NCBI GenBank assembly: GCA_031291825.1
Contig: JARLIG010000004.1
Span: 22,240-86,239, forward strand
Length of the DNA stretch: 64,000 bases
Direction: 5' to 3'
Origin: Minisyncoccota bacterium
GTDB taxonomy: Bacteria; Patescibacteriota; Minisyncoccia; Phycocordibacterales; UBA9973
Shown here: piece after piece, positions 36,464 to 60,617 of the stretch
How positions within the stretch are numbered: position 1 is the first letter of the stretch
How the letters are laid out: every line of letters starts with the position of its first letter
Notes under the pieces: model-generated
Told to the model about the DNA's origin: nothing
Seen by the model: the letters and a program-made list of their open reading frames with translations, nothing else
The model's database searches: none
Position numbers and translations under genes: made by a program

Positions 36464-36507
36464 CCCAGACGTCCAACGTCTGGAAGGTTCCAGACGTTGG
36501 ACGTCTG
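36464..36507. repeat. REP-like palindromic element, a double unit: CCCAGACGTCCAACGTCTGG-AAGGTT-CCAGACGTTGGACGTCTG.
   Basis: Two inverted copies of the 19-nt hairpin unit CCAGACGTTGGACGTCTGG are seen directly. The element is intergenic between tatD and rpsF. Confidence 0.8.
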
Positions 36508-37570: not shown

Positions 37571-37611
37571 CCAGACGTTGGACGTCTGCAAAGCAAGACG
37601 TACAACGTCTC
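37571..37611. repeat. REP-like element: CCAGACGTTGGACGTCTG plus AAGCAAGACGTACAACGTCT.
   Basis: It is near-identical to the copy at 44710-44752. Confidence 0.8.
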
Positions 37612-37617
37612 AAAATT

Positions 37618-43527: not shown

Positions 43528-43623
43528 AGAGACGTCCAACACCTGCTTTAGCAGATGTTGGACGTCTAGAGATTTAATTTTTCCCAGACGTTGGACATCC
43601 GCAGAGCGGGTGTCCAACGTCTG
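43528..43623. repeat. Two REP-like hairpins: AGACGTCCAACACCTGCTTTAGCAGATGTTGGACGTCT and CCCAGACGTTGGACATCCGCAGAGCGGGTGTCCAACGTCTG.
   Basis: Long imperfect palindromes are seen directly. They lie in the divergent intergenic region upstream of the ftsK start. Confidence 0.8.
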
Positions 43624-43815: not shown

Positions 43816-44697
43816 ATGTTTGGAGAAGAAAAAAATCTCAAAGACAGTCAAAAAAGTTCTGAAAAAGACACCTTCTTTATACCGACTCTTTACGGACAAA
43901 CCGGAGCCTTTCATCTCGGCTCTTACACTAAAACTCACAAGCTTATTACCGCGCTTTACATGGTCACAGACATCATAGACAAAGACGAACCACTCAGAAA
44001 TAAATTAAGGACACTTGGCACCGGAATTATATCGGACATGCATTTGGTTCAGCAAAATAATACTGGATATACTATGTCCTTTATCTTCAACAAGGTCTCG
44101 GAAATCATGTATTTCTTGGACATTGCTTCCGCAGTGAATATTATTTCCGAAATGAATTGCAATATCTTGAGAAAAGAATTTTTTGAATTAAACGAAGCTA
44201 TAAAACAATCTATTGATAAAGACGAAATCGCAGACAGGCGTCAGATTGATTTGTCAGAATTTTTCAAAGAAGAAGTTTCTCCTCTCTTTAAGGAAGAAGA
44301 TATCCGACGTCGTACACCTGCTTTAGCAGATGTCCGACGTCAGGTTATTGGACATCATGCTTCCACCAGAATCGGAGTGCAGAAGGGTAGCACTTTAATG
44401 AAAGCTTTGAACGAAAAAATGTCCAAAAGAAATGAGACTAGTCACAATACGAGTGATGTCTTTGATGAACTAAAAAAAGAACGACGAGATAGTATCATAA
44501 GCATCATCAAGACCATCGGCACTGGTGCCACGATAAAGGACATAAAGGACAAAGCACATGCTATGCCTGAACAATTCAAATCCCTCATGTCCGTTAGCGA
44601 AAAAACTCTCCAAAGAGAACTCGTTTCTATGGTTCAAAACGGTGTCCTTAATAAGACTGGAGAAAAGCGCTGGAGCCGCTATTTCATTAAAAATTAG
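43816..44697 (+). CDS. Hypothetical protein with a C-terminal winged-helix-like region. It contains an in-frame REP-like insertion.
   Basis: A palindrome is embedded at 44303-44344 and translates to IRRRTPALADVRRQ. The C-terminus ...TLQRELVSMVQNGVLNKTGEKRWSRY resembles a wHTH domain. Confidence 0.45.
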   Translation: MFGEEKNLKDSQKSSEKDTFFIPTLYGQTGAFHLGSYTKTHKLITALYMVTDIIDKDEPLRNKLRTLGTGIISDMHLVQQNNTGYTMSFIFNKVSEIMYFLDIASAVNIISEMNCNILRKEFFELNEAIKQSIDKDEIADRRQIDLSEFFKEEVSPLFKEEDIRRRTPALADVRRQVIGHHASTRIGVQKGSTLMKALNEKMSKRNETSHNTSDVFDELKKERRDSIISIIKTIGTGATIKDIKDKAHAMPEQFKSLMSVSEKTLQRELVSMVQNGVLNKTGEKRWSRYFIKN

Positions 44698-44709
44698 AGA
44701 CGTTTAAAA

Positions 44710-44752
44710 TCAGACGTTGGACGTCTACTAAAGCAAGACGTACAACGTCTGA
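44710..44752. repeat. REP-like element: TCAGACGTTGGACGTCT...AAGCAAGACGTACAACGTCTGA.
   Basis: It is a sibling of the 37571 copy. It lies directly after the stop of ORF 43816..44697 and probably acts as a terminator. Confidence 0.8.
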
Positions 44753-45314
44753 TTTTTCTCTTTAGGCACCATTTTCTACTTGCAATTCGTATAAAAATAT
44801 GAGAACATATATGCGTGATAACTTTTCTCGCCCTTGAGTCTCTTGGGCGAGTAACTCAAATTTTATAAGCATTTTGCTTAGCAAAATTTGGCGAGTTATC
44901 CACATAATATATTGCTCTATTTTGGAGCTATATATTATAATGTGTTTGTGTCTATAGGAATGCACAAAGTTGTGTTTTCTATATTCGCGAATATTTATTT
45001 TCACCTTAATTATTGTTTGTAATTTCGTCGAAAAAATTGCAAATGATAACCTGGAGAAAATAGATATCCCGACCGAGTCGGGATTATGAAAGGTCATTGA
45101 AAACTAAATATCAATTTTGCTTCTGCATCTAAACGTGCGGATCTAGAATTGTTGTTTTTTGTTTTCAACGTTTGCTTATCTCTGTTCGTTTTTTATTTTT
45201 TCCGCTTCATTATTAAAATTTATTAGTCATTAGCGGCGGATAAAAAACGATAGGAAAAAATACGCTTTTAGTTTTGTCGAAACTAATTAATGGCGTAGAA
45301 ATTAGAAAAAATTT

Positions 45315-48300
45315 ATGAGTAATTTATTTAAATCAAAATTCTTTCTTGGAGTTATGATTGTATCAGTTTTACTCGTAGGAGGTTCTGTTGCTGTTAAGAC
45401 AGCCGCAGCCGCTACGGTAACACCTGCTACTGCAATCACACACACTTTGAAAGTAGGTTCCACATACAAGTCTGAAGTTGCATTACTTCAAACTGATTTG
45501 GGTCTTACTGCTGATGGTAGCTTCGGTCCTAAGACCAAGGCTGCTGTTGAAGCTTGGCAGACAAGCAAGGGTTTAACAGCCGATGGAGTATTTGGTCCTA
45601 AGTCAGCCGCTGCACTTGCAGGTGGTATGACTATGACTTACCCAGCAGGTTGTACTTCAGGTACAGGCTTCAGTTCTACAACTGGTCAACCATGTACTGG
45701 AACAGTCACTACGACTTACCCAGCAGGTTGTACTTCAGCTGTCGGATTCAGTCCTACTACTGGCGCATCATGTGCTACTGGTGTAGTTACTACTCCTCAA
45801 GGAACTGGCCCTCTATCAGTATCATTAGCTACAGACAACCCAGCAGCTGGAAACCTTATCCAAGGTCAAGCTACTGCTGACTTAGCTCACTACGAATTCA
45901 CTGGAACAGGTACACTTACACAGTTGACCTTACATCGAACAGGAATCTCAGATAACTCTGTCTTCCCAAACGTATACCTATACAATGGTAATACTCGTTT
46001 GACAGACTCAGCTTCTGTAAATTCAAGTGGTCAAATCATTTTCAATGGTCTTAACATCGCTGTAAATGGTTCACTTGATCTTTCTGTAAAGGCTGACATT
46101 GTTGGCGGTACTACAACAGAATCAACAGTTCAAGTTACTCTTACCAGTTATATGGTAAGTGGTGGCGCTGCTGCTACTTCTGTAAGTCTCGCTGGTAATT
46201 TGTTTTACGTAAACTCTGGTACAGGTATCCTTTCAACAGTTACTGTTGGAACAAACACTGTAGCTGTTCAAAGTATTTCAGCAGGAACTCAACAGCTTGC
46301 TCTCTGGTCAGCACCAATAAATGTTTCCCTTCACCCAGTATGGTTGAAGAGTGCATCTTTTGATGTTATCGGTTCAGCTCCATCAAATGCATTAGCAAAC
46401 GTTGGTTTGTTTGCAAATGGTGTTCAGGTTGCAACATCAACTGGTATTAACTCAATGGGTTACCTTACCTTTGATTTGTCAGCTGCTCCATTCTCAATGA
46501 CTACTGGCTCTACAACTCTTGAAGTTCGAGCTGACGTTGTAAATGGTTCATCTCGCAATATACAAGTTTCACTTCAACATGCATCTGACCTTATGGTTAC
46601 AGATTCACAAGTTGGCGTAAACATTGCTATTACGAATCTTAGTTCAACAACTTTCTCTATTAACCAAGGCGGTTTGATCACTATTCAGCAAGGTTCTCTT
46701 GTTGCTCAAAGTGATCCTACTTTCAACTCACAGACTAACGTTACTGGTGGCGCATCAAATGTCACTATCGCTAGTTACAAGTTGACTTCTTATGGAGAAG
46801 ACGTAAAAGTTAACACTGTATATGTAACTCCAACCATTTCTGGTAGTCCAGCAGCATGTAGTGCTCTCTCATCAGGTAATGTTGGATTGGAAAATGTTAC
46901 TCTCTACTACAACGGTTCTGCGATTGGCTCAAGTCAACCTGGAACAGTAAGTAGTGGTTGTACATTTAATCAATTGACATTTACTCCGGGTTCTAACCTA
47001 ACCATTTCAGGCGGCACAACTGGTACATTCCAGGTTCATGCTGACCTTATTAATGGTTCAGGTACCCCTCAGTATTCTTCAGGTACAATCGGTGCAACTA
47101 TTGTCGTTCAACAATATCAAGGAATCACTTCTGGACAAGTTAACACTTCTCCTTTGACATTGAGCGGTTCTAATACTCAAACTATTGCAACTGGTTCATT
47201 GTCAATTGCTCAGAATGCAAACTTCTTGAGTCAAACAGTCAATCCAAACAGCTCAGCTGTTCAGATTGGTTCTTTCACTCTTCAAAACCAGAGTACTTCT
47301 GAAGGTGTTGATGTTAATAGTTTGAACGTTGGCTTGTACACAAACAGTGGTTTGGGTACTGTCCTTACAAGTGGTAGCCCTGTTCCAATAACTGACATCT
47401 CAACCTTAACGTTGACTGGCATTACTGGAACTGTTACTCCTGTTGGTCAACCTACTGGATCAAACGTGTTCTCAACAAACTTCACGATTCCTGCAGGTGG
47501 CTCAGTTACTGTTGGCGTAGTTGCTAACGTTGGTTCCACAAACGGAGCTTCATTCGTTACAGCTTTGCAGCCAGTTGCTGTTGGTCATAGTTCACGTGTA
47601 ACTATTACTTCAGCAAATACTGCTGGTCAGACAATAACTCTTGGCGTAGGCGCATTGTCTACTCCAACTCTTGTTGCCAGTGGAGCAACAAATGCTCAAT
47701 TCATTTCAACAGCTGGTGCTGGTGCTCCTAATGCAGCTACAGAAACTTATAACTTCGTTTCTACTTCAGGTTCAGCAAACATTGTTGGTTTGAAGTTCGC
47801 TGCATTGTCTGGTAACTCAGGTACAGCTGGAGCACTTCCAGTTTCTGATTTCGCTGCTCCTACACTTCCTGAAACAGCATTAGTAGTAGGTTCAAACGCT
47901 GCTTCTTTTGCAGCTTGTCCTGTAGCTACCCCTTGTACATTCTTAGTTACTACTAACGGTGTTGTTGGTGGTACTAACGCTGTTGTCACTGGATACTACA
48001 ATGATGCAACTCACTTCAATGTGACTGCAATCACGACTCCAATGGTAGCAGGATGTACAACAACTGGTACATGTACTCCTGGAGTTCCTACAACTATTTA
48101 CCAGCTTGCAACTACTGGCGTAACTGGTGTTGCTCTAAACAGTCCTGGTGTTGCTACAGGTAGTGCTTCCTTCAGTGGAGGTATCGCTTATATCTCATCC
48201 ATCTCTGGTGCAACTCTTGGTACTGGTACAGCTAGTTACATTGCTGTTCCTAATAGTCCTTCCGGTATTACTATTCCTGCATTTATGTCATTCGGACCTG

Positions 48301-49022
48301 TTAACTCTGCTACAAGTGGAGGTGTCGCTTCCGGTACTAATGGACAAATTCTTCTTGAATACGTCCAATACCAGACTGGTAGTAACACATCTTACCTTGC
48401 TCCAGCAGTTCCAGGTACTGTCTTGACTCTTGTTGGTTCAAAGCCAAATATCTCTCTAACCTCTTCAGGTTCTGCTCTTACTAATAGTGCTACTGCATTC
48501 ATTGGTACATTGACAGTTACTGCAGACAATAGTGGTGATATCGCTTTGGATAAACTTCCATTATCTGTTTCTGTAAGCGTAGGTAATGGTGGTACTATCG
48601 GTACTGGCGTAGGTGTAGTTAAACTTACTGACACCAACGGTGTATCTCTTGGTTCCAACTTTACAGCTAACGCTGTATCCAGTGGTGAGTACGCAGAAGT
48701 ATTCGGTTCTGCACTTGCTAACCACTACAGAATTGCAGCTGGTCAATCAAAGACCTTTGAAATTCACGCAGACCTTAGTGGTATTACCACTTTTGGTTCA
48801 AGTGCAACTGTATCTGTTTCCCTTGGTGCTCCTGGTCACTTTGTCTGGGATGATATCAATGGTAACGATATCGCTAACGTATCAACAACTGGTACTGTAA
48901 CTGCAGTCGCTACTCCAACTCTATTCGGAGATGGTGTTAGTGCTCCAAGTTCAGCTTCAGATCTTGCTGCTGGTGGTATCTACAGTTACCCAAGTGGATC
49001 TTCAGCATCAATTCATAACTAA
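45315..49022 (+). CDS. Giant secreted surface protein (1235 aa). It has a signal peptide, two peptidoglycan-binding-like repeats, two Cys-pair mini-motifs and a long T/S/G/V-rich region.
   Basis: The signal peptide is MSNLFKSKFFLGVMIVSVLLVGGSVAV. There are two repeats of the form LxTDLGLTADGxFGPKTKAAVEAWQ. The motif YPAGCTS.(T/V)GFS.TTG..C occurs twice. Confidence 0.6.
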   Translation: MSNLFKSKFFLGVMIVSVLLVGGSVAVKTAAAATVTPATAITHTLKVGSTYKSEVALLQTDLGLTADGSFGPKTKAAVEAWQTSKGLTADGVFGPKSAAALAGGMTMTYPAGCTSGTGFSSTTGQPCTGTVTTTYPAGCTSAVGFSPTTGASCATGVVTTPQGTGPLSVSLATDNPAAGNLIQGQATADLAHYEFTGTGTLTQLTLHRTGISDNSVFPNVYLYNGNTRLTDSASVNSSGQIIFNGLNIAVNGSLDLSVKADIVGGTTTESTVQVTLTSYMVSGGAAATSVSLAGNLFYVNSGTGILSTVTVGTNTVAVQSISAGTQQLALWSAPINVSLHPVWLKSASFDVIGSAPSNALANVGLFANGVQVATSTGINSMGYLTFDLSAAPFSMTTGSTTLEVRADVVNGSSRNIQVSLQHASDLMVTDSQVGVNIAITNLSSTTFSINQGGLITIQQGSLVAQSDPTFNSQTNVTGGASNVTIASYKLTSYGEDVKVNTVYVTPTISGSPAACSALSSGNVGLENVTLYYNGSAIGSSQPGTVSSGCTFNQLTFTPGSNLTISGGTTGTFQVHADLINGSGTPQYSSGTIGATIVVQQYQGITSGQVNTSPLTLSGSNTQTIATGSLSIAQNANFLSQTVNPNSSAVQIGSFTLQNQSTSEGVDVNSLNVGLYTNSGLGTVLTSGSPVPITDISTLTLTGITGTVTPVGQPTGSNVFSTNFTIPAGGSVTVGVVANVGSTNGASFVTALQPVAVGHSSRVTITSANTAGQTITLGVGALSTPTLVASGATNAQFISTAGAGAPNAATETYNFVSTSGSANIVGLKFAALSGNSGTAGALPVSDFAAPTLPETALVVGSNAASFAACPVATPCTFLVTTNGVVGGTNAVVTGYYNDATHFNVTAITTPMVAGCTTTGTCTPGVPTTIYQLATTGVTGVALNSPGVATGSASFSGGIAYISSISGATLGTGTASYIAVPNSPSGITIPAFMSFGPVNSATSGGVASGTNGQILLEYVQYQTGSNTSYLAPAVPGTVLTLVGSKPNISLTSSGSALTNSATAFIGTLTVTADNSGDIALDKLPLSVSVSVGNGGTIGTGVGVVKLTDTNGVSLGSNFTANAVSSGEYAEVFGSALANHYRIAAGQSKTFEIHADLSGITTFGSSATVSVSLGAPGHFVWDDINGNDIANVSTTGTVTAVATPTLFGDGVSAPSSASDLAAGGIYSYPSGSSASIHN

Positions 49023-49735: not shown

Positions 49736-49741
49736 TATTTT

Positions 49742-49816
49742 TGACGTTGGACATCCGCCAAAGGCGGATGTCCAACGTCGGCTCCAGACGTGGAGCGTCT
49801 TGGAGGTTTATCCACA
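49742..49816. repeat. Composite REP-like element with a TTTATCCACA tail: GACGTTGGACATCCGCCAAAGGCGGATGTCCAACGTC + GGCTCCAGACGTGGAGCGTCTTGGAGG + TTTATCCACAG.
   Basis: The same architecture recurs at 51511-51598. Confidence 0.8.
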
Positions 49817-50432: not shown

Positions 50433-50479
50433 AAACCGACGTTGTACACCCGCAAGGCGGATGTCCAACGTCGGTTTTT
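50433..50479. repeat. REP-like hairpin in a terminator configuration: AAAAACCGACGTTGTACACCCGCAAGGCGGATGTCCAACGTCGGTTTTTGTTTTT.
   Basis: A long GC-rich stem is flanked by A- and T-runs. Confidence 0.8.
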
Positions 50480-50715: not shown

Positions 50716-50789
50716 CTCCAGACATTCCCAGACGTTGGACGTCTGTATCCTTACAGACGTCCAACGTCTGGAGGTTTATCCACATCCGC
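50716..50789. repeat. Composite REP-like element immediately upstream of the RAYT gene: CTCCAGACATTCCCAGACGTTGGACGTCTG-TATCCTTA-CAGACGTCCAACGTCTGGAGGTTTATCCACA.
   Basis: It is a double hairpin with a TTATCCACA tail. Confidence 0.8.
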
Positions 50790-50836: not shown

Positions 50837-51502
50837 ATGAGAAAACATCCACTCGTAACTAATCAATATTATCATATATACAACAGGGGAGTTGATAAAC
50901 GAGATATCTTTTCAGACAAGAAAGATCTCAATCGTTTTATTTTGAGTATCAAGCAATTCAATAAAATTTATCCAGTTGGCAGTATCCGAGACAACGTGCG
51001 AGATAAAATAGTTTCTAAATATTTAAAACGACGAGGCAAAGATGCTGATGCCTTGGTTTCTATTGTTTGTTTTTGTTTAAATCCAAATCATTTTCATTTT
51101 ATTTTAAAGCAAGAAGCTGATGGTGGTATTTCTGAATTTCTAAAACGTCTTTTGGGTGGATATACAAAATATTTTAATTTAACCCACAAACGTAGTGGCG
51201 CCCTGTTTCAGGGTAGGTTTAAATCACGCTTGATAGACAGTGAACAATATTTTTTGAAAATTTTTCCATACGTGAATATCAACCACATGATTCATGACAT
51301 ACCGGAAGAAAAAAGATTTTTGGTTTCTTCTAGTGACGTTGAATACGAAAAAATGGTCTTTGATATTGTCTCTAAAAAAGAAGCTGAAAATCTCCTCGCT
51401 TTTTATGGCAATAAAAACAATTTTAAAAATGAATGCCTAAAAGTATCTTCAATAATTAGAGAACAAAGAGAAGAGGTGTCTTCATTTCTAGAAGAAGAGT
51501 AG
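50837..51502 (+). CDS. IS200/IS605-like HuH tyrosine transposase, probably a REP-associated tyrosine transposase (RAYT / TnpA_REP).
   Basis: Motifs present are YYHIYNRGVDKRDIF, the HuH motif NPNHFHFILK, the Tyr region GGYTKYFNLTHKRSGALFQGRFKSRLI and YFLKIFPYVNINHM. The gene is flanked on both sides by REP-like elements. Confidence 0.7.
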   Translation: MRKHPLVTNQYYHIYNRGVDKRDIFSDKKDLNRFILSIKQFNKIYPVGSIRDNVRDKIVSKYLKRRGKDADALVSIVCFCLNPNHFHFILKQEADGGISEFLKRLLGGYTKYFNLTHKRSGALFQGRFKSRLIDSEQYFLKIFPYVNINHMIHDIPEEKRFLVSSSDVEYEKMVFDIVSKKEAENLLAFYGNKNNFKNECLKVSSIIREQREEVSSFLEEE

Positions 51503-51510
51503 ATTTCGTG

Positions 51511-51598
51511 TTCCAGACGTTGGACTGACGTTGTACACCCGCAAGGCGGATGTCCAACGTCGGCTCCAGACGTCCAACGTCTGGAGGGTTATCCACTT
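51511..51598. repeat. Composite REP-like element immediately downstream of the RAYT gene, ending in GGTTATCCACT.
   Basis: The sequence is TTCCAGACGTTGGACTGACGTTGTACACCCGCAAGGCGGATGTCCAACGTCGGCTCCAGACGTCCAACGTCTGGAGGGTTATCCAC. Confidence 0.8.
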
Positions 51599-52284: not shown

Positions 52285-55200
52285 ATGAAGAACAATTTTA
52301 TAAAAGAATACGGCAAAGTTGTTGTATGTTTTATGTTTCTTGTTGTTTTTCTGATACCCAAGTTCTCTTTTGCTTCTGGTCAGTGCTCTAAGAGTGGATA
52401 TACGGTTTTAGTTATTAATGGAGTAAATACCACTCAACAGGAGGCTGAAAACAATGCAACTAATCTAGAATCTAAATTTAAACCAACATATAATGGAGAA
52501 AACCTTAATATTAAATATCTTTATAACCCTACTCATACTGCAATAGCCGATCTTCTTGATGCAGGAGTGCAAAAAACCGATGACCAGTCTATGTCTGACC
52601 TTCAAGATTCAGATTTTGCGCAGATGTTAAATGATGCTAGTAATAAAGTTAAAACACAGAAACTTTTACTAGTTGGTCATTCTCAGGGAAATTTTTATGC
52701 CAATACTTTTTACGATACAGTTGTTGATGCTACTGGCGGTATTCCGAGTCAGTCTATTGGTGTTTATGCGGTGGCTACGCCAGCTAACCGTGTTTCCGGA
52801 ATAAATAGTGCAAATTATATAACTTCTGACACAGACCAAGTGATAGACCATATTCCTGGCATTTTAAAACCAAATGTCCACATAGATTTTAAAGCCAGTG
52901 ACGGTGATTTAATGGGCCATGATTTTTCTAAAATATATTTAAAATATGAAGGTGCAAAAATTGTTTCCGATATAGATACCTCACTTAATAAACTAAAAAC
53001 CAACGATATTCAAAATGAAAACGTTGCTTGTATTAATCCACCGAAATTAACTTTGCCACAAAAAATACAAGGAACGATTTTGTCTACGCTTGACCATGTG
53101 ACGCTTCCATTTCAAGATGCTCTTGTTTATGTTGCTACTGGTGTAACTAATGTTACTGTCGCTATCGCTAATACGACGGTAAATCTTACCGGCTCAGCTA
53201 TTTCTGCTGTTTCTTCTTTGTTTAACCAAACTGTCAGCAATACCAATACTTTGGCGACAAGTGGCGGAGGGGATGTAATAAATTCGATAGAACCCACAAC
53301 ACTAAGTAATTCTACAAGTACTCAACTGACAGAAAATTTACAACCAACTCCACAATTTACATCACCACAAAATGTTTCAATTATAAATTCTTCACCGACG
53401 ACCGAAACCACTTCTTCAAATTCAGCAGCATCATTTGTCGGTAGGGGTGGCGGTGGAGAAGTTGCTATGGCAGAGGAAAATGACGAAGGAGCAATAATTC
53501 CACCAACCATTCCACCGATAGATAATAATCCACCATCTACTGATGTTACTCCTCCCGTCATCACTGTTTTGGGAGACAATCCTGCAGTGGTTGTGCAATA
53601 TGATACTTACACCGATGCTGGGGCTACTGCCACTGACGACGTTGATGGTGCTATTAATGTTGTTGCCAGCGGAACAGTTGATACGACAACGGTTGGCATT
53701 TACACTATTACTTACACGGCGACAGATTCCTCAGGAAATATTGCAACGGCGACTCGTAGTGTAACAGTAGTTGCTTCACAGTCCACTACGAATCCTCCTC
53801 CGTCACCACTCAGTACTTTTACGATTGATAAAGATACAACTCTGACTGCTGGTGAGTACAATTATGAAAATTTATTAATAACCAATAACGCAATATTAAC
53901 CTTACAAGGAGACCCTACTTCCTCGAGTGCTTTCAAGGGAGTAAAAATTAACGCAGATAATATTACTATCGATCCTGGTTCTTCTATTTCTGCAGATGGA
54001 GAGGGTTATGCAGGAGGTGATGGACCAGGAAATTCTTCAGTGTACTATGTCGGGGCAAGTTATGGAGGACTTAGTTATAATGGAGCTACGTATTCGCAAA
54101 CTTATGGTTCAGCTATAAAGCCTACAGACTTAGGCAGCGGAGGACATAGTTCTGGCGGTGGGGCGATTGAGCTAAATGTCTCAAATACTTTTACCGATGA
54201 TGGTACTGTCTCTGCTGATGGTAATATTTCTAGCAGTGGTGGAAGTATTTATGTGACAGCTCAAAATATTACTGGTAGTGGAATATTGCAAGCTGATGGT
54301 GGAAATCTTTTTGGGAGCGGTTATTTCCAAAGTCCAGGAGGGGGTGGAAGAATTGCCGTTTATTATCAAACATCCACTTTTAGCGGAACAGCAGAAGCAA
54401 AAGGTGGATGTGGTAGTTACGATAGTTCGACTAATTCTTGCGCGGGCGACGGAACGGTTGGTTTTTTTAACACGAGTACTAATGATTTATATCTAAACAA
54501 CTCTTGGGAATTTCTACAAGCAGATGCACCCTTTTTATTTAATAATATTTATATTTCAAATGGTGCCAAGGTAACATCGGAAAATGATGTAACGATAACA
54601 ACCAAAAATAATTTTATCGTTGATAAAAATTCTTCTTTTGCTTTAGCTGATAATCAAATATTAAATTCTCCGACACTTATAATTAGCAGTAATTCAACTT
54701 TAACTCTTTCGGGAACTGAAAAAATTACTTCCAACGACCTTATTCTTACTGGAAATTCCACTTTAACTATCGTTCCTCAAAAAATACTTTCTTTAACGAT
54801 TCCAAATATTCATATTGATTCTGGTTCTTCTATTTCTGCAGACGGAAAAGGTTATGGTCAAAGTGAAGGTCCAGGAGAACCAGCGGTAAGTGGTGCTGGC
54901 GCAAGTTATGGTGGTGTCGGTTATCAAAATTCTTTAACCTCAACATATGGATCTCAAACAAATCCAGTCGATTTAGGAAGCGGTGCGGCGTTGAGTGGTG
55001 GCGGAGCCATACAACTTATTGTTTCAAATACTTTTGAAAATGATGGAATAGTTTCTGCTTCTGGTAGCGCTTCTGGTAGTGGAGGAAGTATAAATATAAA
55101 TACAAACAGCTTGTCTGGTACTGGTGCATTTAGTGCGGACGGTGGAGGACTTTACGGCAATGGTTATTTTCAGGGCCCAGGTGGAGGGGGACGGGTTGCT

Positions 55201-55998
55201 ATTTCTTACAACGCCACTTCTTTTAGCGGAACAGTAGAAGCTAAAGGAGGATGTGGCAGTTATGATGGTTGGAGTAGTTCTTGCGCAGGTGGTGGGACGG
55301 TTTATATTCTAAATGAATCAGTTCCAGTCCAGAGTTCTTTAAAAACAATTACAGCATTTGATTTTTCAAATTTAACGCCGATTGTTTCTGGTGTTGTTGA
55401 TGAAACGAACCATGCTATTTCTTTGACTGTCCCTTATGGAACGGATATAACGACTCTCGTGCCTATGATTACTATTTCAGATAAAGCATCAATTAGTCCA
55501 ACCACAAACACGTCTCAAGATTTTACGAATCCAGTTACTTATAAAATTACTGCAGAAGATGGATCAACACAAAATTATGTTGTGAATGTGACCGTAGCGC
55601 CCAACCCAGATCCTCCAGTGACACCGCCTCAAACACCAAGCACGACACTACCTTCAATCACAAGTTATACATTTAATGGTACGGCTGGAAACATAATAAT
55701 AAATCCGACAGCAATAACCCCTTTTTCTTTAATGATGACTGCTAGTGAAAATGTAAATTGGATGTCTATAAAAATTGAAAATCAAAACGATTCAAGCACT
55801 TATAAAATTTTTCAGTCTGGGGCAGGCTGTGTGGATGGCACAAATACTTGCACAAAAAGTTGGGACGGTGCTTTGTCAAAAGGGGGGTTGTTGCAAAATG
55901 GAACTTTTCGAATAAAGGTTCATGTCAAAGACAGCGCGGGCAATGAATACGACGATTATCTTACCCCATATATAATTACAGTTGACACTTCGTTGTAA
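52285..55998 (+). CDS. Giant secreted protein (1237 aa). It has an N-terminal alpha/beta-hydrolase (lipase-like GHSQG) domain, an Ig-like domain, two tandem ~190-aa Gly-rich beta-helix-like repeats and C-terminal Ig-like domains.
   Basis: A signal peptide is present. The nucleophile elbow is LLVGHSQGNFY. The two repeats are GSGGHSSGGGAIELNVSNTF...KGGCGSYDSSTNSCAGDGTV and GSGAALSGGGAIQLIVSNTF...KGGCGSYDGWSSSCAGGGTV. Confidence 0.6.
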   Translation: MKNNFIKEYGKVVVCFMFLVVFLIPKFSFASGQCSKSGYTVLVINGVNTTQQEAENNATNLESKFKPTYNGENLNIKYLYNPTHTAIADLLDAGVQKTDDQSMSDLQDSDFAQMLNDASNKVKTQKLLLVGHSQGNFYANTFYDTVVDATGGIPSQSIGVYAVATPANRVSGINSANYITSDTDQVIDHIPGILKPNVHIDFKASDGDLMGHDFSKIYLKYEGAKIVSDIDTSLNKLKTNDIQNENVACINPPKLTLPQKIQGTILSTLDHVTLPFQDALVYVATGVTNVTVAIANTTVNLTGSAISAVSSLFNQTVSNTNTLATSGGGDVINSIEPTTLSNSTSTQLTENLQPTPQFTSPQNVSIINSSPTTETTSSNSAASFVGRGGGGEVAMAEENDEGAIIPPTIPPIDNNPPSTDVTPPVITVLGDNPAVVVQYDTYTDAGATATDDVDGAINVVASGTVDTTTVGIYTITYTATDSSGNIATATRSVTVVASQSTTNPPPSPLSTFTIDKDTTLTAGEYNYENLLITNNAILTLQGDPTSSSAFKGVKINADNITIDPGSSISADGEGYAGGDGPGNSSVYYVGASYGGLSYNGATYSQTYGSAIKPTDLGSGGHSSGGGAIELNVSNTFTDDGTVSADGNISSSGGSIYVTAQNITGSGILQADGGNLFGSGYFQSPGGGGRIAVYYQTSTFSGTAEAKGGCGSYDSSTNSCAGDGTVGFFNTSTNDLYLNNSWEFLQADAPFLFNNIYISNGAKVTSENDVTITTKNNFIVDKNSSFALADNQILNSPTLIISSNSTLTLSGTEKITSNDLILTGNSTLTIVPQKILSLTIPNIHIDSGSSISADGKGYGQSEGPGEPAVSGAGASYGGVGYQNSLTSTYGSQTNPVDLGSGAALSGGGAIQLIVSNTFENDGIVSASGSASGSGGSININTNSLSGTGAFSADGGGLYGNGYFQGPGGGGRVAISYNATSFSGTVEAKGGCGSYDGWSSSCAGGGTVYILNESVPVQSSLKTITAFDFSNLTPIVSGVVDETNHAISLTVPYGTDITTLVPMITISDKASISPTTNTSQDFTNPVTYKITAEDGSTQNYVVNVTVAPNPDPPVTPPQTPSTTLPSITSYTFNGTAGNIIINPTAITPFSLMMTASENVNWMSIKIENQNDSSTYKIFQSGAGCVDGTNTCTKSWDGALSKGGLLQNGTFRIKVHVKDSAGNEYDDYLTPYIITVDTSL

Positions 55999-56001
55999 TT
56001 T

Positions 56002-56046
56002 CTCAGACGTTGGACTGACGTTGGACGTCTGGAGGGTTATGCACAG
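56002..56046. repeat. REP-like element (deletion variant): CTCAGACGTTGGACTGACGTTGGACGTCTGGAGGGTTATGCACAG.
   Basis: It shares its 5' half with the 51511 copy and has the TTATGCACA tail. Confidence 0.8.
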
Positions 56047-57340: not shown

Positions 57341-59098
57341 ATGGACAATAAATCATCTAGACAAAAAGTAGCGCTTATCTCTGTATATGACAAGACGGGC
57401 ATTAAAGAATTTGCAAAAAATCTAGTAGATTTGGGCTGGAAAATAGTCTCTTCTGGTGGCACAGCTAAACATTTAACAGAAGCGGGTATGCCCGTGACTG
57501 ACGTAGCGGAAATTACCGGCATGCCACCAATTCTTTCACACCGAGTTTTGACGCTACATCCGAAAATCCATGGCGGGCTTTTGGCGCTTGATACATCGGA
57601 GCATTTAGCAGAGCTGGAAAAATATGGGATTCCTTGGATTGATTTAGTTTGTTGTGATTTATATCCACTGGAGGAGGAAATAAAAAACTCTAGCGCGACG
57701 CGAGAATCAGTTATTGAAAAAACAGATATTGGTGGACCGACAATGCTTCGTTCGGGGGCAAAAGGGAGGCGCATAACTATTTGTGACCCGAGCGATAGAG
57801 AAAAAGTAATTGAGTGGTTAAAAAAAGGCGAGCCTGAACGTGAAGAATTTTTAAATAATTTAGCAGCTAAGGCGGAAGCAGTAATTGCAAAATACTGTTC
57901 TGCTTCTGCCGAGTATCACAGTAAAGGAGAGCTCAAAGGAATTTTTGGAAAGAAAGAAATAGAATGCGCATATGGGGAAAATGCATATCAAAAACCAGCC
58001 AGCTTATATAGAAATTTAAATGTGCATAACACTCCAGACGGTGGACGTCTGGAAGCTACCAGACGTCCAACGTCTGGAGACCCATTAGCCATACATAATT
58101 GGCAACTCGTGGCAGGCAGTCCGCTTTCCTATAATAATATTTGCGATGTGGATAGAATGATGCAAACGATGACACATATTGGCGCTGGTTTTGAGAAAAA
58201 TTTTGGAAAAGTTCCAGACATCGCGATTGGCGCAAAGCATGGCAATGCTTGTGGGGCAGCGTTTGCTGAAGAAGAAATTAATGCGATTGATAATATGCTC
58301 TTGGGAGACTTGCGCGCAATTTTCGGCGGTTCGGTGATGCTAAATTTTAATGTAGATGAAAAAATTGCGGAAGAATTAATCCATAAATATGCAGGTGCTG
58401 GGAGACGATTGCTGGACATTGTCGCGGCACCATCTTTTTCTGCCGAGGCTATAGAGATTTTATCTCGCAAAAAAGGTAAATGCAGAATTTTAGTAAATCC
58501 AAACATTTTGAAAGCAGGATTATCTTCTTTGGATACAACTTCTAGGTTTCGTTACGTGCGTGGGGGATTTTTGACTCAACCGAATTATACTTTTGTTCCA
58601 AGATTGCAAGAGCCAGAGATGTCGGTATTCCGCCAAGGCGGAAGCCCGACACCTGTGGCGATTATACAAGATGTCATTCTCGCTTGGGCTGTCGGATGCA
58701 CATCAAATAGCAATACAATTACAATTGTGAAAGATGGCAGACTTTATGGCAATGGCGTAGGACAACAAGACCGTGTAGGGGCCGCCAAGCTTGCAATTTT
58801 TCGCGCAGACGATGCCACCGCTTTTGCTGTGGATAACCCTCCAGACGTTGGACGTCTGGAAGCTTCCAGACGTCCAACGTCTGGGACAGGGGCTGATTTA
58901 GAAGGGGCTGTAGCTTGCAGTGATAGCTTCTTTCCTTTCCCAGATGCGCCGGAAGTACTAATAAATCGGGGGATAAAGACCATCTTTTCCACTAGTGGCT
59001 CAGTAAATGACGATAAAATTATAGAACTTTGCAAGACAAAAAACGTAAATCTAATAATGCTTCCAGACTCTGAAGCCAGGGGATTCTACCAGCATTAA
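57341..59098 (+). CDS. purH: Bifunctional AICAR transformylase / IMP cyclohydrolase (PurH) carrying two in-frame REP-like insertions.
   Basis: The N-terminal MGS-like motifs are ALISVYDKTGI...SSGGTAKHL...RVLTLHPKIHGG. The C-terminal AICARFT motifs are SPLSYNNICD, ACSDSFFPFPD and FYQH. The inserted peptides are PDGGRLEATRRPTSGD and PDVGRLEASRRPTSGT. Confidence 0.75.
   Translation: MDNKSSRQKVALISVYDKTGIKEFAKNLVDLGWKIVSSGGTAKHLTEAGMPVTDVAEITGMPPILSHRVLTLHPKIHGGLLALDTSEHLAELEKYGIPWIDLVCCDLYPLEEEIKNSSATRESVIEKTDIGGPTMLRSGAKGRRITICDPSDREKVIEWLKKGEPEREEFLNNLAAKAEAVIAKYCSASAEYHSKGELKGIFGKKEIECAYGENAYQKPASLYRNLNVHNTPDGGRLEATRRPTSGDPLAIHNWQLVAGSPLSYNNICDVDRMMQTMTHIGAGFEKNFGKVPDIAIGAKHGNACGAAFAEEEINAIDNMLLGDLRAIFGGSVMLNFNVDEKIAEELIHKYAGAGRRLLDIVAAPSFSAEAIEILSRKKGKCRILVNPNILKAGLSSLDTTSRFRYVRGGFLTQPNYTFVPRLQEPEMSVFRQGGSPTPVAIIQDVILAWAVGCTSNSNTITIVKDGRLYGNGVGQQDRVGAAKLAIFRADDATAFAVDNPPDVGRLEASRRPTSGTGADLEGAVACSDSFFPFPDAPEVLINRGIKTIFSTSGSVNDDKIIELCKTKNVNLIMLPDSEARGFYQH
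58024..58081. repeat. REP-like element inside purH: TGTGCATAAC-ACTCCAGACGGTGGACGTCTGG-AAGCTA-CCAGACGTCCAACGTCTGGAG.
   Basis: It is a double hairpin plus a TGTGCATAAC tail, and it is in-frame in the CDS. Confidence 0.8.
58828..58887. repeat. REP-like element inside purH: GTGGATAACC-CTCCAGACGTTGGACGTCTGG-AAGCTT-CCAGACGTCCAACGTCTGGG.
   Basis: It is a double hairpin plus a GTGGATAACC tail, and it is in-frame in the CDS. Confidence 0.8.
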
Positions 59099-60544: not shown

Positions 60545-60617
60545 AGACGTCGGATATCCGCTACTACGGGTGTCCGATGTCTCTGTAAAAAAGATGTCAT
60601 TTATTGACATCTTTTTT
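60545..60617. terminator. Degenerate REP-like hairpin (AGACGTCGGATATCCGCTACTACGGGTGTCCGATGTCT) followed by the terminator AAAAAAGATGTCATTTATTGACATCTTTTTT.
   Basis: Inverted repeats are seen directly after the stop at 60525. Confidence 0.65.

Follow-up and report, generated by a model that had tools for sequence, protein, structure and literature searches.

Repeats of the REP/REPIN type and their associated tyrosine transposases (RAYTs) are known from Proteobacteria such as E. coli and Pseudomonas, where the combination is called a REPtron. Copies inside genes are also on record: in-frame intragenic REPs, mostly dimers that encode 20-30 amino acids, have been described, as have the Rickettsia palindromic elements (RPEs), and a location of in-frame REPs in flexible linkers or loops has been proposed (PMC3733652). 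One group, the CGTC REPs, has the CGTC tag at one end, an 8-9 bp stem starting with A/T pairs, a 4-5 nt loop and a CCA-like tail (Di Nocera et al. 2013; PMC3733652). These elements are reported to be without a dedicated transposase (PMC3733652). For CPR bacteria, our literature searches found no published description of a REP/RAYT system.

Here, we analyze a 42-nt imperfect palindrome at positions 44303-44344 of a 64,000-nt stretch of DNA from a tiny uncultured CPR bacterium (Minisyncoccota), referred to below as the window. We will argue that this segment is very likely a copy of a REP/REPIN-type mobile repeat family, spread most likely by the RAYT encoded at 50837-51502, and that the copy inside the gene is probably a passenger. 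Since in-frame translated palindromes are already known from REPs and RPEs, the case belongs with them and calls for no new mechanism.

Results and Discussion

The palindrome and its host protein

The segment has the sequence TCCGACGTCGTACACCTGCTTTAGCAGATGTCCGACGTCAGG and lies within ORF 43816-44697 (+ strand, 293 aa), which runs through it in frame as ...EEDIRRRTPALADVRRQVIGHH... An earlier sequence-only reading had placed the palindrome inside this ORF without a break of the frame, and the sequence and its translation bear this out. The element-derived peptide is IRRRTPALADVRRQ (aa 163-176, codon phase from 44302), and two of the three frames of the element on the + strand are open, as read off the sequence. 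Folded as single-stranded DNA, the segment gives -12.7 kcal/mol for the + strand and -16.3 kcal/mol for the - strand, with z-scores of -5.5 and -7.9, respectively, and none of 200 shuffled sequences folds equally well.

The palindrome had also been called a variant of a copy at 43528, and rightly so: the nearest copy in the window, 43529-43568, is identical to it at 33 of 40 positions, and the 20-nt centre ACACCTGCTTTAGCAGATGT is the same in both. Against the family profile, which was built with the in-gene copy included, the segment scores E=4.5e-11 (nhmmer). At one position of the stem, C-G replaces the T-A of other copies, so that the pairing is kept. An in-situ compensatory change of the stem was considered as the origin of this pair, but the same GTCGGA/TCCGA variant is found in the intergenic copy 60545-60582, which weakens that option; the C-G pair thus marks a subfamily.

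Just 3' of the in-gene copy, the conserved IGH codons ATTGGACATC (44345-44361) resemble the REP core GTTGGACATC, and the codons likewise read (A/T)(T/A)(C/A)GGACA(T/C) in orthologs that have no element. The likeness may amount to microhomology, or it may provide a target that makes repeated insertion easier at the linker site.

A chance open frame, with no homologs, had been named as the finding that would speak against the ORF being a gene. The search instead returned 1089 homologs (E<=0.001) from Paceibacteria, and the top match, a protein of a 'Candidatus Pacebacteria' MAG, is identical. The gene is oriented divergently from ftsK in every related locus that was read, in a conserved neighbourhood comprising tatD, rpsF, ssb, rpsR ... 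recA and ftsK. In the AlphaFold model, calculated with 29 sequences, a helical bundle (aa 37-134) is followed by a region with pLDDT below 50 (aa 136-189) and by a confidently modeled winged helix (aa 212-291). On the basis of the homologs, the synteny and the C-terminal winged-helix model, the chance frame was rejected.

No significant match to the 293-aa protein was obtained from Pfam and NCBIfam, and a fold search gave weak, domain-level matches to four-helix-bundle proteins and to Fur/ArsR-type winged-helix proteins, none of them at E<=0.001. According to the model, the peptide of the in-gene copy falls in a predicted disordered linker between the helical bundle and the winged helix. In the ortholog alignment, this linker is hypervariable, with lengths of 18-62 aa between the conserved LSEFF and IGH..GVQKGSTL blocks.

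The repeat family

The motif GACGTYSRAC, with a GACGTTGGAC-type core, occurs 33 times in the window compared to 0.5 expected, a number reached in none of 100 shuffles. All 33 matches fall within 36.4-58.9 kb, and a profile search adds one further copy at 60545-60582. The window contains 14 repeat loci, all located in the 24 kb between 36.4 and 60.6 kb (Table 1). Positions 1-36000, an almost gap-free operon-like coding region, contain no copy of the family.

Table 1. Repeat copies in the window and the genes discussed together with them, in order of position.
Feature	Positions	Strand	Remarks
Intergenic REPIN between tatD and rpsF	36466..36507	.	copy at the same syntenic position in L001
Intergenic REPIN after ssb	37572..37613	.	
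Closest sister copy (33/40)	43529..43568	.	ftsK / 293-aa gene intergenic region
Second REPIN of the ftsK / 293-aa gene intergenic region	43585..43623	.	
Host gene, conserved Paceibacteria protein	43816..44697	+	predicted helical bundle aa 37-134, disordered linker 136-189, winged helix 212-291
In-frame REPIN-type imperfect palindrome	44303..44344	.	arms GACGTCGTACACCTGC / GCAGATGTCCGACGTC, loop TTTA; peptide IRRRTPALADVRRQ
REPIN copy, A-run before and T-run after	44706..44756	.	9 nt past stop; terminator-like hairpin
Intergenic REPIN, then partial unit and GGAGGTTTATCCACA	49741..49781	.	
Intergenic REPIN, A-run and T-run at its flanks	50436..50476	.	
Perfect REP doublet (REPIN), then GGAGGTTTATCCACA	50728..50771	.	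66 nt upstream of RAYT start
RAYT-type (REP-associated tyrosine, Y1 HUH) transposase gene, 221 aa	50837..51502	+	motifs YYHIYNRG, NPNHFHFIL (HUH), YVNINH
Composite of REP units, then GGAGGGTTATCCAC	51511..51586	.	begins 9 nt past RAYT stop
REP units just past stop of ORF 52285-55998	56004..56038	.	
purH, second host gene	57341..59098	+	Pfam AICARFT_IMPCHas plus MGS
In-frame REPIN in purH	58035..58078	.	peptide TPDGGRLEATRRPTSG
Second in-frame REPIN in purH	58841..58884	.	peptide PPDVGRLEASRRPTSG; arms 100% complementary
Intergenic copy, GTCGGA/TCCGA variant	60545..60582	.	profile search E=4.6e-6

Eleven of the loci are intergenic and so occupy the ca 9% of the sequence outside ORFs, which cover about 91% of the window, while the other three lie in frame inside real genes (one in the 293-aa gene, two in purH). 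The family is thus strongly intergenic, yet copies in coding regions are not rare. The earlier suggestion that coding-region insertion is general to the family therefore holds in that such insertions recur, but it does not describe the majority of the loci.

The basic unit of the family is the mini-palindrome GACGT-TGG-ACGTC (CAGACGTTGGACGTCTG). Two inverted units with a short spacer form a doublet that gives a hairpin of 40-45 nt. The unit GACGTTGGAC(G/A)TC is common to two architectures. In one of them, inverted 17-nt mini-palindromes (CAGACGT-TGG-ACGTCTG) are separated by a spacer of 4-8 nt, as at 58841-58884 and 50728-50771, where the arms are fully (100%) complementary. In the other, the units are linked by a short G+C stem and loop (43585-43623, 49741-49781 and 50436-50476), and the in-gene copy is of this kind. 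The folding energies of the doublets range from -12.7 to -26.1 kcal/mol, with z-scores of -5 to -10. Judged from the sequence, this layout of the units is that of a REP doublet (REPIN).

The copy downstream of the 293-aa gene deserves a separate comment. It had been described as a repeat at 44710-44752 that terminates the gene. A copy does follow the gene there, at 44706-44756, but the stop codon is not supplied by it: the TAG is at 44695-44697 and the copy begins 9 nt later. The inverted repeat is 95% complementary (-20.8 kcal/mol), and a scan found a terminator-like pattern at 44736-44750 plus GATTTTTCTC. With a G+C-rich hairpin and then a T-run directly after the gene, the copy is a predicted intrinsic terminator by pattern.

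About six copies have a one-sided extension, GGAGGKTTATCCACA. Within this extension, a DnaA-box-like 9-mer, TTATCCACA (exact or with one mismatch), adjoins the REPINs in the form ...CGTCTGGAGG(G/T)TTATCCACA. It is found at 49808, 50776, 51589, 56037, 58021(-) and 58828(-), and also at 44896 and 59726; at up to one mismatch there are 33 occurrences compared to 18.7 expected. In purH, the extension reads V(D/H)N(P/T)PD in translation. It may correspond to the GTAG guide flank seen in classical REPs, but it may also be there by coincidence. No consistent GTAG was seen in the copy flanks listed, and no consistent target sequence was apparent by eye at the flanks. A search of 36000-60000 gave no Rfam match at gathering thresholds, and a known RNA family was therefore rejected.

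Two very large ORFs rich in T/S/G/A, 45315-49022 (1235 aa) and 52285-55998 (1237 aa), lie between the REPIN clusters. They are probable surface proteins, and in related loci the former has PG_binding-like repeats at its start.

Palindromes in purH and in other linkers

The 293-aa protein had been counted as the second one, after purH, to carry an element-derived peptide. The identity of purH is confirmed, and two copies, not one, are found in frame in it. The alignment to the solved PurH structure 4ehi breaks exactly at these two copies. At the first break, query residues 222-263 correspond to chain residues 244-263, and at the second, residues 490-517 correspond to 467-470, with 26 residues in the query and 2 in 4ehi.

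In the orthologs of the 293-aa protein, about 42 of the 92 linkers that could be delimited have recurrent peptides resembling other translated palindromic repeats, with motifs such as PLLxEEGxGGG/SSxRRR, NPLLxKERG, SPLLRGRSKEG and ERPxxRAG. Three of these orthologs (L083, L084 and L085) were checked at the DNA level. The linker palindrome of L083 occurs three more times in its 20-kb locus, that of L084 recurs in the ftsK linker, translated there as PLLEEEGAGGG..., and that of L085 shows little recurrence. The L084 copies, at L084:9056-9137 (ftsK, minus strand) and L084:10457-10573, belong to a different G+C-rich palindromic family of the CCCCTCCTC..GAGGAGGGG type, which reads as PLLEEEGAGGGNSRKSPPRPSGTPPPQGGEEE in the FtsK linker and as PLLNEEGVGGG...SSSTRRRE in the linker of the ortholog.

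The RAYT-type transposase gene

The window also encodes a candidate for the enzyme that mobilises the repeats, 6.5 kb from the in-gene copy. The earlier reading had recognised neither the REP/REPIN character of the family nor this RAYT-type gene, and it made no mention of the in-frame REPs described in other bacteria (PMC3733652). ORF 50837-51502 matches Pfam Y1_Tnp at 26.4 bits, above the gathering score of 23, and NCBIfam REP_Tyr_transpos at E=4e-7 (30 bits), below the cutoff of 80. Y1_Tnp is matched by 35 of 36 relatives, the HUH histidines and Y145 are invariant among relatives, and homologs are named 'REP element-mobilizing transposase RayT' or 'REP-associated tyrosine transposase' in public sources. 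The structural model has a pLDDT of 83, and its best fold match in the PDB is the E. coli RAYT in complex with a REP hairpin (4er8_A); the TnpA proteins of IS608 and ISDra2 are among the further matches (ranks 2 and 11-20). At the sequence level, neither a single-sequence phmmer search nor a 36-sequence profile matched the solved Y1 transposases in the PDB.

The RAYT gene is bracketed by repeat copies at the short distances given in Table 1, and the same arrangement is found in related genomes. We collected 80 related RAYT loci from Paceibacteria-type MAGs. In a comparison of flanks over 67 loci, an 11-mer common to both 200-nt flanks was present in 55, compared to 6 of 118 displaced controls. 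The stems of the flanking palindromes differ by genome (CAGACGT, CGGACGT, CGGGTGT, CAGGTGT, GGTAGAGGT and AATCGGT). The TTGGA/TCCAA centre is often kept in the closer RAYT relatives, and a palindrome of the AGATAGAGCC type is found at more distant ones. The RAYT-flanking units of the window have this TTGGA/TCCAA centre, while the in-gene copy has TCGTA/TCCGA and may no longer be a substrate.

In all three genomes checked, the 293-aa gene or its ortholog is followed by the RAYT gene at a distance of ca 7-8 kb downstream (50837-51502 in the window, L001:17482-18147 and L084:18246-18845). This syntenic position suggests that the gene is inherited vertically, in the manner of domesticated RAYTs.

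History of the in-gene copy

To place the orthologs relative to the window, we used the identity of the neighbouring ftsK, which is 90-93% for L086 and L087 (98% in the motor domain), 87% for L001 and 85% for L002. A tree of the domains of the host protein agrees with this ranking, with L086 and L087 closest. The closest orthologs, P0002 and P0005 (ftsK 90-93% identical), are without the element; in L086 and L087 the linker is free of palindromes, and their short contigs contain no member of the family. A comparison with orthologs lacking the 42-nt segment had been proposed as a check. Such orthologs exist and are the closest ones, but in place of a clean 42-nt gap they have an unrelated linker of similar length. 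As the linker is not alignable among orthologs, no clean empty site can be pointed to for the 293-aa gene.

In L001, the element occupies the same site and points the same way as in the window, with 37 of 40 nt identical, and in that alignment the codons on either side visibly diverge far more than the element. L002 has the reverse-complement form, with the loop TAAA instead of TTTA and the GTAC arm on the other side (33/40 to the reverse complement). Two REPIN loci are conserved in position between the window and L001, namely 36466-36507 / L001:2248-2290 (tatD/rpsF) and 44706-44756 / L001:10882-10950 (after the 293-aa gene). Between ftsK and the 293-aa gene, where two REPINs are located in the window, L086 has a different long palindrome, CTTGTCCGACAACAAAATTCCCTCGTTGTCGGACAAG (L086:3438-3474).

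These observations could be explained if the element was inserted once, long ago, in a common ancestor of the lineages of the window, L001 and L002, and if the lineage of L086 and L087 later lost it or had it overwritten, with no repeated insertion. The equal protein position and reading frame in the window, L001 and L002 would fit this, as would the two other loci conserved in position in L001 and the conserved synteny of the RAYT gene. However, the opposite orientation in L002 requires a second event, conservation is far higher in the element than in its flanks, which is better explained by recent arrival or conversion, and the nearest relatives do not have it. We therefore consider a single ancestral insertion rather unlikely; the inverted L002 copy and the absence from the closest relatives both disfavour it. 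The patchy distribution, including the inverted copy, implies at least two events, and simple inheritance is a less likely explanation than independent insertions or the conversion of short tracts.

That the copies of the window and L001 are nearly identical next to divergent codons could alternatively reflect gene conversion or selection on the hairpin. In the latter case, the in-gene hairpin would be a selected DNA or mRNA element, acting for example in pausing or attenuation between the domains, in mRNA stability or as a protein-binding site, and not a passenger. The kept stem pairing at the C-G position and the presence of a palindrome in the same linker of many orthologs are in line with such a role. 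On the other hand, the linkers of the two closest relatives have no hairpin, that of L002 has it inverted, other orthologs have unrelated palindromes or, in linkers down to 18-19 aa, none, and the C-G variant is shared with the intergenic 60545-60582 and is as such a subfamily mark. Selection on the hairpin is thus improbable. Even less probable, to the point that we give it very little weight, is that the palindromes are conserved intrinsic terminators or uptake-type signals instead of mobile DNA, with the in-gene copy arising by chance or convergence. Several copies do lie just past stop codons, preceded by an A-run and followed by a T-run (44706-44756, 50436-50476), but many others are without T-runs, three are inside genes, the stem sequence varies by genome while the architecture is constant, and Rfam gave no match. 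What led us to set aside the DNA-uptake-sequence and pure-terminator readings is the bracketing of the RAYT gene, by copies in the window and by palindromes in 55 of the 67 related loci.

Proposed mechanism

We thus return to the mobile-repeat explanation. On the basis of homology and gene architecture, the RAYT encoded at 50837-51502 would be the enzyme that mobilises the repeats, a single HUH/tyrosine transposase that spreads single-stranded hairpin units. By analogy with E. coli TnpA(REP) and the IS200/IS605 enzymes, its substrates would be the hairpins in single-stranded form, which it would recognise and cut. Most of the surviving insertions would be intergenic, where some copies resemble terminators and those with T-runs may double as such.

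The in-gene copy would likewise have arisen by insertion and then have passed a selective filter, surviving if it adds whole codons, if its frame is free of stops and if the extra hydrophilic residues are tolerated at that place. In the 293-aa protein, the tolerant site would be the disordered linker that joins the helical bundle to the winged helix, and in purH the two positions where the alignment to the solved structure breaks. A copy surviving in this way would be translated as a passenger peptide, and the peptide in the 293-aa protein is probably a neutral one.

A more far-reaching proposal, which we put forward tentatively and regard as doubtful, is that disordered linkers of Paceibacteria (in the 293-aa protein, in FtsK and at the two purH sites) are recurrent landing pads for the REP/REPIN family of each genome, such that RAYT-driven palindromes would be a regular source of linker sequence in reduced genomes. 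The linker site of the 293-aa gene would then have been hit independently several times, perhaps helped by the IGH codons.

The analysis ties an anonymous CPR repeat family to its likely mobilising enzyme and extends REP/RAYT biology to a lineage for which we found no published description. It also offers an explanation for odd peptides in conserved proteins, which is useful for the annotation and alignment of CPR proteins. A linker colonised repeatedly by different palindromic families would be a natural system for the study of sites that tolerate insertions of selfish DNA.

Comparison with known systems

The closest counterparts are the REPtrons of Proteobacteria. As in these, there are many short imperfect palindromes, mostly intergenic and often just downstream of genes, the units are paired in inverted orientation into longer hairpins, and one Y1 HUH transposase gene is flanked by repeats. 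The variation of the repeat sequence between genomes with the architecture kept, and the in-frame copies in some genes (PMC3733652), are also shared. The host, on the other hand, is a CPR/Paceibacteria genome, and the RAYT is too divergent for the NCBIfam equivalog cutoff. Unlike in classical REPs, the unit, with its 7-bp stem and 3-nt loop, is very short, and there is no GTAG/GTGG tag at the foot of the hairpin; several copies instead have the one-sided extension GGAGGKTTATCCACA.

With the RPEs, the family shares in-frame palindromes that add short hydrophilic peptides at tolerated sites, and a presence in intergenic regions as well. It differs from them in sequence, size and host, the RPE host being alphaproteobacterial and RPE-1 being much longer. 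RPE-4 and RPE-6 are CGTC-tagged REPs, for which no sequence relation to the window family has been established. Compared to the CGTC REPs, the CGTC is here inside the stem (ACGTCTGG), the stem and the loop are of other sizes, and there is an associated RAYT.

The enzyme, finally, resembles the Y1 TnpA proteins of IS200/IS605 elements (IS608, ISDra2) in its predicted fold and in its HUH and Tyr motifs, and the hairpins are presumably read as single-stranded DNA in both cases. Unlike in IS200/IS605, the gene is not part of a multi-copy insertion sequence whose left and right ends are defined. The window has one copy of it, and its position is syntenic across genomes, both of which would be expected of a domesticated RAYT.
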